28,025 nucleotides of DNA. Origin: an uncultured archaeon. GTDB taxonomy: Archaea; Asgardarchaeota; Lokiarchaeia; Sigyniarchaeales; Promethearchaeaceae. Each line of letters starts with the position of its first letter. The stretch's first letter is position 1. A program made the translations under genes and the position numbers. Location: NCBI GenBank assembly GCA_964426185.1, contig CAYRPF010000019.1, positions 4,397-32,421 of the forward strand, written 5' to 3'. Positions 6,696-25,686 of the stretch are shown in pieces. The notes beneath the pieces are model-generated. The model was not told the origin of the DNA. It ran no database searches and saw nothing but the letters and a program-made list of their open reading frames with translations.

Positions 6696-7292
6696 TTACA
6701 ACAAATTCTGGGCTTTCAAAGTAGTTCCTAGCTGCTTTATAAGAGGAATTAGGCAATTTTCACTTTTTACACCGGTTAAAATCACTTTTCCAGATGAGAA
6801 TATTAAGAACACCGCCTTGGGAGAATAAACTCGGTAAATCAACCCAGGAAATATTTCGGGTTCATAAATTGAAGAATCTAAAACTAAAGAAGCGATATCT
6901 AAGTTAATTCTGCACTTAAAATCAATAGATGCAACAATATTAGCTAATTCATACTTTGGTTTTGAAGTCACATGAATCCCAATTCTGTTTAATTTATATA
7001 CAATTTTTGCAATTACTTTAGGAATATCTTTCGTATTTTTTAAACCTGTGATAATAGCTTTGCCGTTGTGGAATAACAACACGGTAGATTTAGGAGTTGG
7101 TGGAGTCAATCTAATACAAATTCCAGGAAATTTTTGAGAATTATATTCTATATCGCGATAATGTTTACGAATTTCATCTAAAGGAATTTGGTGGTCAAAA
7201 TTCACAGAAATGACGGAGTTTTGCACTTTGAATGTGGCAGAATGGCCCGTTTTTTTGATATTTTGCGAAGATTCTGAAGGATTAGGCTGCAA
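6696..7292 (-). CDS. tbp: TATA-box binding protein (divergent, probably a paralog)
   Basis: Two TBP repeats: QNSVIS...EYNSQKFPGICIRL...LLFHNGKAIITG and NIVAS...YEPEIFPGLIYRV..PKAVFLIFSSGKVILTG. The TTG start is preceded by SD-like GGGGAG 8 nt upstream. Confidence 0.92.
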   Translation of the reverse strand: MQPNPSESSQNIKKTGHSATFKVQNSVISVNFDHQIPLDEIRKHYRDIEYNSQKFPGICIRLTPPTPKSTVLLFHNGKAIITGLKNTKDIPKVIAKIVYKLNRIGIHVTSKPKYELANIVASIDFKCRINLDIASLVLDSSIYEPEIFPGLIYRVYSPKAVFLIFSSGKVILTGVKSENCLIPLIKQLGTTLKAQNLL

Positions 7293-21532: not shown

Positions 21533-23833
21533 TTAGAAATGATCAGAAAAAATCATACCTTTGCGGAACTTTATAGATTGAATTAAATCATTCAGTTCAT
21601 GGGAGGGAACAGGGGCAAATTCATCAAATAAATTCTGCCAAAAAACGCGACCAGATGTAGCTCCTCGGATTTCTTGGGCAAATTCAATGGAATAACGGAC
21701 AGACATTTTAGCCGTGATGTGAGTTCGATACACATCTTGAGTAATTTCCAAGATCTTTCCATGAAATTGAGAGAGCAAAGAGCTGACCGTGCCTATATAC
21801 TCCTCTGGAGTGGTAATTAGGAGTTTATATATCGGCTCGAGTAAAACTGGCTTGGCTAGGATCAGAGCTTGTTGGAAAGCTTGTTGAACCATGGTAGATA
21901 ATTCAAAATAATTGGCTTTTTCTTCATCGCCTGCAACTGATAAATTGGATATGGTAATTTTAAGCTCGGATAATGGTTCACTGGCTAAAGGCCCTCTCGC
22001 ACATATACCTTGAATGATTTGAATGAAAGATTTTCGAATCTCTTCAGAAATACCCAATATTTCTTCTTCTTTACTTGATTTTCGCCTACTTTTTCTTGAT
22101 TTTTTAGATTTTCGAGAATGTTTTTGCGAATCCGATTTGTCTTCTGGGTTATAATTTTCTTCATTTGAATTTTTTGGTAGAATAATTAGCACATTTTGGA
22201 ATTTATCCACGTTCCATATTCCTTTGGCTTCTTCAGTAGTAAATTGAGTATTATTTGGTAGTTCTTTAACGCGAAGATATTCATATTCCAATACAGAACG
22301 TTTAACTTTACGGATATATTCGATAGTTTCTTTTTCCAATCGTTGAATTTGCAGAGTTAAATGGTTGTATTGGTTTGGGCTTGAAACAGATATTAAATCG
22401 CTTGGTTTTGATATTGATTCATGAAATACACTAGACGGTTTTGAAACAGAAACATCCACACCGCGTTCTTTTATGGTATTAACTACAATTTCCAAATGAA
22501 GAGGGCCCATACCAGATAAAAGAACTTCGCCCGAATCTTCACTAATCTGAACAGAGATATTCGGATCTTCCACTGCAATTTCATCCAAAATTTCTTGAAG
22601 TTTATTCAAATTTTTCAACATATCCGGCTCGATCGCAACAGTTACAACCGGTTCGCTAACATAGTGGACAGATTCGAAGGGTTCTGCATCATCTTTAGCT
22701 GAATTGTCAAATAAAGTCTCTCCACTCGCCAATTTATGTATTCCACCAATAGCTACGATATTTCCTGCGAGGATTTCTGTTACGCTTTCAATCCTAGCTC
22801 CCATGAAAATGCTTAATTGATTAAGATTGGATTTAGTTTCGGCATTTACCAACCAAAATGGCTGTCCCCTGCGTATCACTCCCGAAAACACCCGTCCAGT
22901 TCCTATTAACCGATTTTTCATCTTTTGGACTTTACTTACAAAAACAACAGCAGGACCATTAGGATCACAAGATTTCAGAAATGAACCGACCTCACTCTCC
23001 ACATTTCCACTCCAAATTGTGGGAATGCGATATGATTGGGCCTTTTTTGGATTAGGTAGGAATGTGACGATTGCTGCAAGAACACATTCCCAAACTGGAA
23101 AATCATGAACTAGTGATTGGTGGGAAGATTCATGGTATTTTGAATAAAAATATTCGAGGGTGCGGTTTTGTTTGATTAATTGAGGGATAACAAATCCCCA
23201 TCTATGCAAAGCGGAGCCAAAAATTACAGAACCTTTTTCAGCGGAGACTATCCATTCAGTTTGAGCCCGGTTATCTCCATATATTGTAATTAATTTGTTA
23301 AAATCTTGAATAATTCGGGAGAATTTTGCCTTGATATCCGGCATATCAAGTTTTAATTCATTAAAAAGGCGATCAATCTTGTTTATGAACAAAATAGGGC
23401 GAACTGCTTCTTCCAAAGCTTGCCTGACTACGGTTTCGGTTTGAGAACTAACTTCTTCCACACTATCCACAATCACTACTACGCCATCAGCCAATCTTAA
23501 TGCACGAGTAACCTTTCCTGAGAAATCTAAATGCCCTGGAGTATCCACCAAGTTTATCAAGAACGGTTGGGAACCCTTTAAACTGTGTTCGTAATATAAT
23601 GAAATGTTGGCAGATTTCATGGTTATCCCCCGTCGCTGCTCTTCTTCTAAATAATCCAACACTCGCGCTTCTCCAGCAATAACTTCAGAAAGCAATCCCG
23701 CTTCTGCAAGTAAACTATCGGAAAGTGTGGTTTTTCCATGATCAATGTGTCCAATTAACCCTACATTGCGAATATTCTCTGGATCTTGCATAATACGAAT
23801 GATATCTTCAGTCATTTTCACACGACGGGACAT
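21533..23833 (-). CDS. Translation elongation factor 2 paralog (aEF-2p-like) lacking the diphthamide HRG loop
   Basis: G-domain motifs GHIDHGKTT, RGITM, DTPGHLDF and NKID, plus GMGPLHLE and LLEPIY. The HEDxxHRG position reads VAGDEEKANY. The gene is not in a ribosomal-protein operon. SD AGGTGGAG precedes ATG 23833. Confidence 0.88.
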   Translation of the reverse strand: MSRRVKMTEDIIRIMQDPENIRNVGLIGHIDHGKTTLSDSLLAEAGLLSEVIAGEARVLDYLEEEQRRGITMKSANISLYYEHSLKGSQPFLINLVDTPGHLDFSGKVTRALRLADGVVVIVDSVEEVSSQTETVVRQALEEAVRPILFINKIDRLFNELKLDMPDIKAKFSRIIQDFNKLITIYGDNRAQTEWIVSAEKGSVIFGSALHRWGFVIPQLIKQNRTLEYFYSKYHESSHQSLVHDFPVWECVLAAIVTFLPNPKKAQSYRIPTIWSGNVESEVGSFLKSCDPNGPAVVFVSKVQKMKNRLIGTGRVFSGVIRRGQPFWLVNAETKSNLNQLSIFMGARIESVTEILAGNIVAIGGIHKLASGETLFDNSAKDDAEPFESVHYVSEPVVTVAIEPDMLKNLNKLQEILDEIAVEDPNISVQISEDSGEVLLSGMGPLHLEIVVNTIKERGVDVSVSKPSSVFHESISKPSDLISVSSPNQYNHLTLQIQRLEKETIEYIRKVKRSVLEYEYLRVKELPNNTQFTTEEAKGIWNVDKFQNVLIILPKNSNEENYNPEDKSDSQKHSRKSKKSRKSRRKSSKEEEILGISEEIRKSFIQIIQGICARGPLASEPLSELKITISNLSVAGDEEKANYFELSTMVQQAFQQALILAKPVLLEPIYKLLITTPEEYIGTVSSLLSQFHGKILEITQDVYRTHITAKMSVRYSIEFAQEIRGATSGRVFWQNLFDEFAPVPSHELNDLIQSIKFRKGMIFSDHF

Positions 23834-23846
23834 AATCTCCACCTAA

Positions 23847-23993
23847 AGGAAATACTCAGAAGAATGGGGATCCACACTCAAGATCTTCTTCATTATTACC
23901 CTTCTCCTTATCTCTTTCAAGAAGAGAAAGAAGATGGAAAATTCGGCAGGGTCAGATATATCATTTCCACAAAGAACTTCTTGAGTATTTCCT
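23847..23993 (-). ncRNA. Candidate structured RNA element (5' leader of the EF-2 paralog, or a small ncRNA/MITE)
   Basis: A perfect 12-bp terminal inverted repeat AGGAAATACTCA (23847-23858) / TGAGTATTTCCT (23982-23993) encloses three internal hairpins and ends immediately before the SD. Confidence 0.55.
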
Positions 23994-24036
23994 AATGAAA
24001 AATCAAGGCTTCCCTCAAAAAAAGCTTAATTAATTA

Positions 24037-25686
24037 TCACACTACTTTTCGCTCAGTTACCCTTCGAATTCCAAACTGATCCAATATCACTCTAATTTTC
24101 TTGTAATACAGCGGGGATAAAGGATTTTTAGAAGATATTTCCCTTAATCGGAAAATAACGTTTAAATGATAAACTTTTATGCATTTAACCTTTTTAATTT
24201 GCTTTGATTTTGGATCCCAATTAATTTCTGTGGTTTCCGGATCATCAGCATATTGAAGAAATCGTTTGATATTAAACCGGATAATATCATTCACGTCTCT
24301 ATTTCGTTCGTGAAATTCCGTAATTTTATCTGTTTTCAATTCCACCAGTTTGACATATTTATAAACAACTTCGGGCTTGCCACCGCGTTCAATTGAAATC
24401 TTTGATCCCCTCTCTCGAATATTGATAATATCTTGTGGAATTTGTGAAAAATGGAGAAATCGAACACTTTCTTTGCTGATTCCGATTTTTCGCTCATGGA
24501 TGGTATCAAAAATCAAGAATTTGCGGTCGGGAAAGAATTTGTTCATGAATTTGTGAGAACCTTGACGAATCCATTCTTTAAATCGGTCTTTAAGCATGTA
24601 AACTACTATAAGCAATGTTATATATGCATATGTATTTGATGCAAAATTATCTACGACCCAAAAACCCAGTAGAATGGAAATAAACATAGCAAAACCAGCT
24701 GCGAGGGAATAAAGAAGCTGTAAAGTCTTAGATTTTTCTTTGCTGGGTTTAGTACTTAAATAAAGAACGCTTTGAACGTATTTTTTGAGAATTCCATCCC
24801 AATAAGGAATATTTTCATTGGATGAGTGAGATTTTGTTTGAAATTTTAAATTAAGTGGATTAAATTTGGCAGATTCGTAATCTAAAATTTTAATTAATTT
24901 CTTTTTTAGAGTCTGAATTGTATTATTTGAAGTTAAAGAAATATCTGAAGTATACAAAGTATCCGAATTTTCTTGATTAAATAATCGGAGATAAATTTTA
25001 CCACAGTGGTCTATAATTTGGCGATTGATATATTTATCTACAAATGTAAATGTTTCTTGTATTTCTAGTGGAATCTGGGCAATTTGAAGGTCCACCTCAA
25101 GTTTTTTAAAGCGATTTTGAATTTCTAGCAATTCATCAAAAAATTCTAATTCACCTTCATCCACGGGATTAAATTCGTTAAAAATATGCGGATTAGAGTT
25201 AGCATTAACAATTTCTCTGTTTTTTAGAAACAAATCAGCCTGATCTCTAAGGGTGGATTTTAGAATACATCCCAATACCCGAAGTTCATAATTGATTCGG
25301 TTAAAATGCTCCAAAGAAGTATCCCCATTCTTAATTTTCTCCAATTTCTGATATATAATAGCAAATGGCGATTTTGGGTTATTTCGATTTAAAAGTCCAG
25401 ATAAAGCCATCTGTGGGGTTTTAAACCGGATATAATTAGTCAGATCAGTATAAAAGTCTTCGGAGTGGTAAGTGGCTTGATTAACTTGCAAGGCACTGGG
25501 AATAAAAAAATAAACTTCCAATTCGTATTTATTTATGGGAAAATCTTCTACCAGAGTATAATCTAATTTGACTTCAAAATTATAGCGATCATGCTGTTCT
25601 ATAGTGGAGTCTTGCAGTTCAATAGGTAAACTTGAGTCATCTGGATTTGCTCCAAAAAAAAATCCACGTTTTCTGGCGGGAGACAT
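24037..25686 (-). CDS. Conserved-looking hypothetical membrane protein (large soluble N-domain, two TM helices, soluble C-domain)
   Basis: Long clean ORF with a hydrophobic hairpin LLYSLAAGFAMFISILLGFWV...YAYITLLIVVYML followed by KDRFKEWIR. A TATA-like TTTAATA lies about 30 nt upstream. Confidence 0.75.
   Translation of the reverse strand: MSPARKRGFFFGANPDDSSLPIELQDSTIEQHDRYNFEVKLDYTLVEDFPINKYELEVYFFIPSALQVNQATYHSEDFYTDLTNYIRFKTPQMALSGLLNRNNPKSPFAIIYQKLEKIKNGDTSLEHFNRINYELRVLGCILKSTLRDQADLFLKNREIVNANSNPHIFNEFNPVDEGELEFFDELLEIQNRFKKLEVDLQIAQIPLEIQETFTFVDKYINRQIIDHCGKIYLRLFNQENSDTLYTSDISLTSNNTIQTLKKKLIKILDYESAKFNPLNLKFQTKSHSSNENIPYWDGILKKYVQSVLYLSTKPSKEKSKTLQLLYSLAAGFAMFISILLGFWVVDNFASNTYAYITLLIVVYMLKDRFKEWIRQGSHKFMNKFFPDRKFLIFDTIHERKIGISKESVRFLHFSQIPQDIINIRERGSKISIERGGKPEVVYKYVKLVELKTDKITEFHERNRDVNDIIRFNIKRFLQYADDPETTEINWDPKSKQIKKVKCIKVYHLNVIFRLREISSKNPLSPLYYKKIRVILDQFGIRRVTERKVV

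Follow-up and report, generated by a model that had tools for sequence, protein, structure and literature searches.

What is the structured element that precedes a translation factor gene in this Asgard archaeal genome, a leader of that gene or a gene of its own? The DNA analysed here (the window, the whole stretch of 28,025 nt) carries on its minus strand an EF-2 family gene (21533-23833) with the domains GTP_EFTU, EFG_III and EFG_C. This gene encodes a paralog (aEF-2p), and a second EF-2, 35% identical, is found on contig C20 of the same genome (G000). The element is located in the 203-nt spacer between the aEF-2p gene and a 549-aa ORF (24037-25686, minus strand), for which a Pfam search gave no match. 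As both flanking genes are on the minus strand, this is the relevant strand for the element.

A first-pass annotation had described the spacer as holding an unannotated structured RNA, richer in GC than its surroundings and with a closing stem close to the Shine-Dalgarno (SD) sequence of aEF-2p. These observations hold. The RNA is genuine, conserved and covarying (23846-23994), its GC content is 37.4% compared to 23-26% in neighbouring spacers, and the SD GGUGGAG (23837-23843) follows 3 nt after its closing stem. The preferred interpretation, a cis-regulatory leader of aEF-2p, is not supported, given the box C/D architecture of the RNA, its variable distance to aEF-2p and its separation from that gene in two genomes (G003 and G004); the evidence instead supports one of the alternatives that had been named, an independent ncRNA. 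With a probability of roughly 0.8, we assign the element as the gene for a trans-acting archaeal box C/D sRNA, predicted from its sequence to be the methylation guide for C34 of tRNA-Leu(CAA). The architecture, conservation, covariation, copy number, complementarities and partner protein genes on which this assignment is based were all observed directly and are presented below.

Conservation and covariation of the RNA

Orthologs of aEF-2p were gathered from 40 relatives and their upstream regions were read for a conserved element, which was found in two families (f1 and f3). It contains two near-invariant blocks, with the cores UCUGACCC and GAUCUUGAGU, each flanked by UGA/GA motifs, and between them a hairpin of varying length and sequence. 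The closing helix changes in sequence and keeps its pairing, for example in the forms GGAAAUACUCA, GCGGGAAAUGA, GAAGUAC and GAUCGGU. A covariance model was built from 22 sequences. Covariance-model searches gave matches in 121 of 151 genomes of the same order, with one copy each except for two in G035, and in 76 of the 151 genomes of a phylum sample, with one copy each. On the evidence of these searches, the predicted sRNA belongs to a previously uncurated family, present in one copy per genome and conserved across the Asgard archaea.

In a model alignment of 49 sequences, 82.7% of the pair cells were canonical (57.2% after shuffling, 39-47% when the partners were slid), and the covariation score was 0.579 compared to 0.09-0.15 for the slid controls. 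Double compensatory changes were observed in 22 of the 23 pairs. All ten modelled pairs of the terminal closing helix (helices 1 and 2) show such changes, with 93-98% of cells paired among the 49 homologs, and the six modelled pairs at the base of the inserted hairpin (helix 5) all covary. The closing stem of the first-pass annotation (23847-23858/23982-23993, with its GAAG/CUUC extension) is therefore present and strongly covarying, and the central hairpin was also recovered, within 23895-23942. Both are seen in the MFE and centroid folds of the minus strand. RNAalifold on a plain MAFFT alignment recovered the closing stem alone because the insert is unalignable, and the structure was therefore specified by hand and the alignment based on the covariance model. 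The comparison of folding energies with shuffled controls on both strands, which had been proposed as a check, was not distinctive (z = -1.69, with 12 and 10 of 200 shuffles folding equally well).

Box C/D architecture

The copy in the window was matched by cmsearch with model R1 over the full model (69.8 bits, E 2.7e-18). Its parts and immediate surroundings, from 5′ to 3′ on the minus strand, are the following.

24017-24023, minus strand: T-rich box, 24-30 nt upstream of the sRNA 5′ end; candidate TATA box and/or terminator of the upstream ORF
23846-23994, minus strand: whole predicted box C/D sRNA gene, 149 nt according to the covariance-model match (cmsearch)
23982-23993, minus strand: terminal closing helix, 5′ arm, a perfect 12 bp with 23847-23858; extension GAAG at 23977-23980
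23966-23968, minus strand: GGA, C-stem of the terminal K-turn, pairing with UCC at 23868-23870
23958-23965, minus strand: degenerate box C, AAUGAUAU (consensus RUGAUGA), aligning with the canonical GAUGAUGA of distant homologs
23947-23957, minus strand: D′ guide, an 11-nt spacer with the core UCUGACCC, which is kept in f1 and f3
23943-23946, minus strand: box D′, CCGA (consensus CUGA), a CNGA column block in all homologs
23895-23942, minus strand: 48-nt hairpin inserted between D′ and C′, found in the MFE and centroid folds
23887-23894, minus strand: box C′, AAUGAAGA, near-consensus; its AUGA-NGA block is conserved in all homologs
23875-23886, minus strand: D guide, a 12-nt spacer with the core GAUCUUGAGU, invariant in 48 of 48 aligned homologs
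23871-23874, minus strand: degenerate box D, UGGA (consensus CUGA), aligning with CUGA of distant homologs
23868-23870, minus strand: UCC, the partner of the C-stem GGA at 23966-23968
23847-23858, minus strand: terminal closing helix, 3′ arm; extension CUUC at 23859-23862
23837-23843 and 23831-23833, minus strand: SD GGUGGAG and start codon ATG of aEF-2p (gene 21533-23833)

The blocks of the homologs follow the order terminal stem, C, 11 nt, D′, loop or hairpin, C′, 12 nt, D. The 11- and 12-nt spacers are nearly gap-free over 48 homologs (single-base exceptions in a few members) at total lengths of 71-158 nt, and near-fixed spacing of this kind is a hallmark of the Nop5-fibrillarin ruler. The distant homologs, of 71-113 nt, are textbook archaeal box C/D sRNAs with consensus boxes; L140, for example, reads stem, GAUGAUGA, 11 nt, CUGA, UUU, AUGAAGA, 12 nt, CUGA, stem. 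Compared with this canonical form, the members of the window's order have a long closing helix, extra internal-loop sequence and a hairpin that turns the C′/D′ K-loop into a K-turn. Box D′ makes tandem G.A pairs with box C′, and the inserted hairpin is the C-stem of the internal K-turn, in place of the usual K-loop of 3-8 nt. The hairpin differs in length and sequence between genomes and is missing in the distant members, which have a short K-loop in this region.

The terminal boxes have drifted in the window's order. In the window, box C reads AUGAUAU and box D UGGA, with the GA/GA core retained in both. Three pairs beyond the tandem G.A pairs covary instead: the 3 nt following the box-C GA pair and covary with the 3 nt preceding the D-box GA (helix 3). 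In some f3 genera (L021, L023, L024), a Watson-Crick or U.U pair takes the place of the second sheared pair in the terminal K-turn, so the terminal motif may not be a classical K-turn everywhere. The core of the D′ guide is kept throughout f1 and f3 with one substitution (L018), and was found in many other families. Three further pairings of the first-pass annotation, the hairpin GAAGAA..GAUC, the stem UGGAAA/UUUCCA and the AGGGU/ACCCU pseudoknot, were not borne out, as their segments fall on the invariant single-stranded guides and boxes or on the non-conserved insert and clash with the K-turn architecture.

At gathering thresholds, Rfam gave no match in the whole window. An E-value scan of the window region returned a weak C/D snoRNA match (ceN53, 21 of 50 bits) and noise. 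With the canonical homologs as queries, the matches were again sub-threshold, and all those on the sRNA were to C/D-box families: the best was snoPyro_CD (34.4 bits, 45 needed; E 1e-3), followed by sR5, sR3, sR2, sR9 and sR55. Finally, genes for the protein partners of such an RNA were detected in G000 by Pfam above cut-off, with fibrillarin (265 bits) and Nop (219 bits) on contig C39 and L7Ae (93 bits) on contig C84. The Nop5 and fibrillarin genes adjoin at G000:C39:9337-10847, the usual archaeal arrangement.

The D guide and tRNA-Leu(CAA)

GAUCUUGAGU, the core of the D guide and invariant across the phylum, is fully complementary to ACUCAAGAUC, with 10 of 10 Watson-Crick pairs. This sequence is A31-C40 in the anticodon arm of the intron-containing tRNA-Leu(CAA) of the same genome (G000:C13:6690-6834), a gene that was read by hand since ARAGORN calls this intron-rich tRNA Lys(ttt). 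The N+5 count from box D leads to C34, and the predicted product of the D guide is Cm34 of tRNA-Leu(CAA). The same arm sequence is present in the tRNA-Leu(CAA) genes of relatives, and the conserved guide stretch and the invariant part of the tRNA arm end at exactly matching points. A strict pattern of D-loop plus anticodon arm was found phylum-wide in 50 of 151 genomes, with 8 control matches. The introns of the tRNA-Leu(CAA) genes are inserted after position 40, so that the target is whole both before and after splicing.

No comparable site was found in the 16S and 23S rRNAs of a closed genome of the same genus, where the best matches of both guides were 8-9 interrupted pairs, which is chance level, and the D′ core UCUGACCC had no match beyond chance. 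Scans of the whole of G000 for 8-10-mer targets gave mostly chance matches in coding regions.

In G000, the genes of tRNA-Leu(CAA) (G000:C13:6690-6834, plus strand) and tRNA-Leu(UAA) (7148-7281, minus strand) are divergent and have a common acceptor stem (locus L047, 191-335 and 649-782). Both hold a non-canonical intron in the D-arm region, and the CAA gene has a second intron after position 40. At locus L061 (G015), the intron after position 40 of tRNA-Leu(CAA) holds a C/D-box-like CUGAUGA, which is not conserved in G025.

Relation to the aEF-2p gene

A leader function could apply instead of guiding or besides it, with L7Ae/sRNP assembly or excision of the RNA setting the amount of translatable aEF-2p mRNA. 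The layout of the window fits such a mechanism: the 3′ arm of the closing helix lies 3 nt from the SD, leaving no space for a separate promoter between sRNA and SD, from which we infer co-transcription. The spacing is also tight at L010, L011, L012, L013 and L014 and in most f1 loci, where the 3′ end of the sRNA is 13-23 nt from the start codon. Over all loci, however, this distance ranges from 13 to ~96 nt. The gap is wider in f3 (80-96 nt), and within it lies a conserved, A/T-rich, promoter-like box, which is probably the promoter or operator of aEF-2p itself. At loci L020-L031 and L078-L104, this A/T-rich box (AAUCCUAAAAUUUUAAUC-like) is found ~25-45 nt downstream of the sRNA, and one genus has a second, related box.

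Boxes upstream of the sRNA were also observed. Loci of f1 and f3 repeatedly show a T/A-rich box at about -20 to -33, and in f3 a TATA-like box lies ~25 nt upstream. The T-rich box at 24017-24023 may accordingly be the sRNA promoter in the window. The C-terminal sequence of the 549-aa ORF is kept upstream of the sRNA in several f1 genomes. In the genus of the window, co-transcription with aEF-2p and subsequent excision of the sRNA would be the simplest reading.

Elsewhere the two genes come apart. They are on different contigs in G004, an unrelated gene follows the sRNA in G003, and no EF-2-like gene was found within 3 kb of the sRNA at 18 of 20 distant loci. In f21 an EF-2-like gene does lie near the sRNA, but its scores against the paralog and the canonical EF-2 are close (596 vs 544 bits), and we therefore make no claim of synteny for f21. 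Within the order, the sRNA and aEF-2p co-occur: six f3 genomes (G015, G024, G029, G034, G038, G039; completeness 91-99%) are without both, and none is clearly without one alone. This favours a leader function, and the joint absence is odd for a housekeeping tRNA guide unless the locus assembles badly. In other genomes, many sRNA matches are no more than a few hundred bases from a contig end, and the two genes are adjacent, so one deletion event, or a gap in the assembly, can account for their joint absence.

Beyond the C/D boxes and the guides, the RNA has no conserved core resembling a ligand pocket, and no conserved helix sequesters the SD. As a guide target, the aEF-2p mRNA offered 7 weak sites, with 6.2 expected by chance. 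We consider a regulatory leader unlikely on these grounds; in this genus, an additional effect in cis on aEF-2p, beside the guide role, is conceivable. A riboswitch is not supported either, as the RNA has no constant leader position and no conserved helix that involves the SD, and has a full box C/D architecture instead. The locus thus warns against reading the region upstream of aEF-2p as a dedicated regulatory leader.

The D′ guide and tRNA introns

The complement of the D′ guide, GGGUCAGA, has a sole structured-RNA site in G000, the non-canonical D-arm intron of tRNA-Leu(UAA). The motif recurs in the same intron in f1, and with one extra base in f3 and f4. In other families, small closed genomes were searched for the 9-mer complement, and it was located in the intron of an elongator-type tRNA whose anticodon is CAU; this is tRNA-Met, or may be tRNA-Ile2. 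The pattern CTCATAA-N(1-30)-GGGTCAGA (in RNA, CUCAUAA, 1-30 nt, GGGUCAGA) was found in 25 of 41 relatives with 26 matches, compared to one match for the reversed control. Twenty-five of the 26 matches are in tRNA(CAU) genes, the exception being the second match in G009. Phylum-wide, 42 of 151 genomes hold the pattern.

It was seen in families that keep the UCUGACCC(C) guide (f3, f5, f15, f21, f10) and was not found where the D′ guide has diverged (0/19 in f14, 0/1 in f26, 0/1 in f28), these families not being phylogenetically independent. A search in five incomplete f14 genomes gave no match, and a 10-mer search located no tRNA(CAU) in f24, f14 or f26. In f24, where the guide reads CUCUAGCCC, a compensatory test found no tRNA-like site with the predicted target. 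The cognate guide-intron duplexes are 9-11 bp long in 16 of 17 genomes, with some covariation in the flanks. The elongator tRNA(CAU) is not assembled in G000, and for the window's genus the pairing is therefore taken from G001, where the duplex is 11 bp. Four f3 genomes (G015, G029, G034, G038) keep the motif without a detectable sRNA, so that it is not maintained solely by the sRNA.

Two side observations concern the same sequences. The f3 D′ guide and its 5′ neighbour (CUCUGACCC) have the same sense sequence as the anticodon loop and 3′ stem of tRNA-Gln(CUG) (G000:C22:4233-4308, minus strand). The intron motif is thereby also complementary to the tRNA-Gln(CUG) loop, which may be a coincidence. 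In addition, two neighbouring tRNA(CAU) genes, both with the GGGGUCAGA intron motif, are present at G176:C356:8427-8644 and at G181:C169:7729-10118; such a pair could consist of Met and Ile2 isoacceptors, or have arisen by duplication.

Because the D′ target is intronic, a methyl group there has no obvious use. Precursor docking, a chaperone role, or assistance to the D guide on imperfect anticodon loops are possibilities for this pairing. The last would make the sRNA two-handed, the D guide acting on anticodon loops and the D′ guide clamping the shared intron motif, so that several tRNAs would be served and the neighbourhood of aEF-2p would be a functional decoding module. The fit of the D guide is perfect on tRNA-Leu(CAA), includes a G.U at position 34 on tRNA-Leu(UAA) and has two mismatches on tRNA(CAU). 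We offer this extension tentatively and regard it as rather doubtful.

The RNA could also be a K-turn RNA without methylation activity, serving as an antisense chaperone or docking RNA in the folding or splicing of intron-containing pre-tRNA(CAU) and pre-tRNA-Leu. Degenerate terminal C/D boxes in this order would suit such a role, as would the pairing of the D′ guide with one arm and the loop of an intron hairpin (in f3, the motif is the 3′ arm and loop) and the presence of both guide targets ~17-25 nt apart in pre-tRNA-Leu(UAA). However, the spacers stay at 11-12 nt, the length needed for fibrillarin placement, the D guide has perfect N+5 geometry on C34, the C′/D′ boxes are near consensus and the distant homologs are fully canonical, which makes a purely non-catalytic RNA very improbable. 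The third candidate is a mobile inverted-repeat element such as a MITE, in which the 12-bp arms would be the terminal inverted repeats and the CCTAA near both ends a target-site duplication. The perfect repeat occurs nowhere else in the window. This candidate has next to no probability, since BLAST of the 3.26-Mb assembly matched the element alone (next-best match 22 nt), relatives have one copy per genome, the arms covary as an RNA helix, conserved C/D boxes lie inside and CCTAA belongs to the stem context of a single-copy gene. This BLAST count refuted the MITE and, among the checks listed with the first-pass annotation, was decisive together with the covariation and the orthologous upstream regions.

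Comparison with known systems

The haloarchaeal sR-tMet (Joardar et al. 2011) is listed as a guide for Cm34 (PMC4033218). The site of this sRNA is reportedly C34 of elongator tRNA-Met, with the intron-containing precursor as substrate, and it reportedly has K-turns, not a K-loop, at both C/D and C′/D′. The RNA of the window likewise has K-turns at C/D and C′/D′ and is a predicted C/D sRNA for wobble Cm34. Its perfect guide, by contrast, is for tRNA-Leu(CAA), and tRNA(CAU) would be contacted through the intron only, by the D′ guide.

Pyrococcus is known to have C/D guides for position 34 of tRNA-Leu(CAA) (PMC7994747). Like these, the Asgard RNA has the order C, D′, C′, D with guides of ~12 nt and a tRNA substrate, with C34 of tRNA-Leu(CAA) as predicted target; as with many tRNA-directed sRNAs, just one of its guides matches a mature tRNA. 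It differs from the Pyrococcus guide in being one gene conserved across a phylum, and the two are likened by class and target, not by sequence homology. In the window's order, it is 100-157 nt long with a long closing helix and a C′/D′ hairpin (~55-60 nt for the Pyrococcus guide), and, as a further difference, it has a conserved second guide that matches introns of tRNAs.

In archaeal pre-tRNA-Trp, a C/D guide is encoded by the intron, and both guides act on exon positions, 34 and 39 (PMC4033218, PMC7994747). Both systems link a guide RNA, an intron and wobble methylation through C/D-guided Nm34 on a pre-tRNA, as predicted in the Asgard case. The pre-tRNA-Trp guide is the intron itself, whereas the Asgard guide is a separate gene with one guide on the introns of other tRNAs. 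Finally, Nm34 is formed by protein-only enzymes in bacteria (TrmL) and eukaryotes (Trm7-Trm734) (PMC4033218, PMC6847430). The outcome on tRNA-Leu, Cm34/Nm34, is the same as that predicted for the Asgard sRNA, but these are stand-alone methyltransferases without a guide RNA.

Proposed mode of action and significance

By analogy with established C/D sRNP biology, L7Ae would bind both K-turns, C/D and C′/D′. Nop5 and fibrillarin would assemble after L7Ae, each spacer of 11-12 nt then serving as an antisense guide. On A31-C40 of tRNA-Leu(CAA), the D guide would place the wobble C34 opposite the fifth position upstream of box D, giving Cm34. The pairing of the D′ guide with the intron motif of elongator-type pre-tRNA(CAU) and pre-tRNA-Leu(UAA) suggests that unspliced precursors are what the RNP acts on or docks to. 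Within this genus, one transcript from the sRNA's promoter probably covers both the sRNA and aEF-2p, and processing would then excise the sRNA from the 5′ leader.

A tempting riboswitch reading is thus replaced by a testable assignment, a phylum-wide box C/D sRNA with a named substrate and site, and the annotation of Asgard genomes gains an ncRNA that is ready for covariance-model searches. The canonical archaeal guide RNA of 70 nt appears to have been enlarged in one order to a snoRNA-like form of ~150 nt with two K-turns. The specific question that the sRNA raises is that of its conserved guide pairing with tRNA introns. If the two-handed reading were true, Nm34 of tRNA-Leu(UAA) and of elongator tRNA(CAU) would be intron-dependent and coupled to splicing, and the neighbourhood of the sRNA and aEF-2p, with its fused 5′ leader in this genus, would be a functional decoding module and not an accident.
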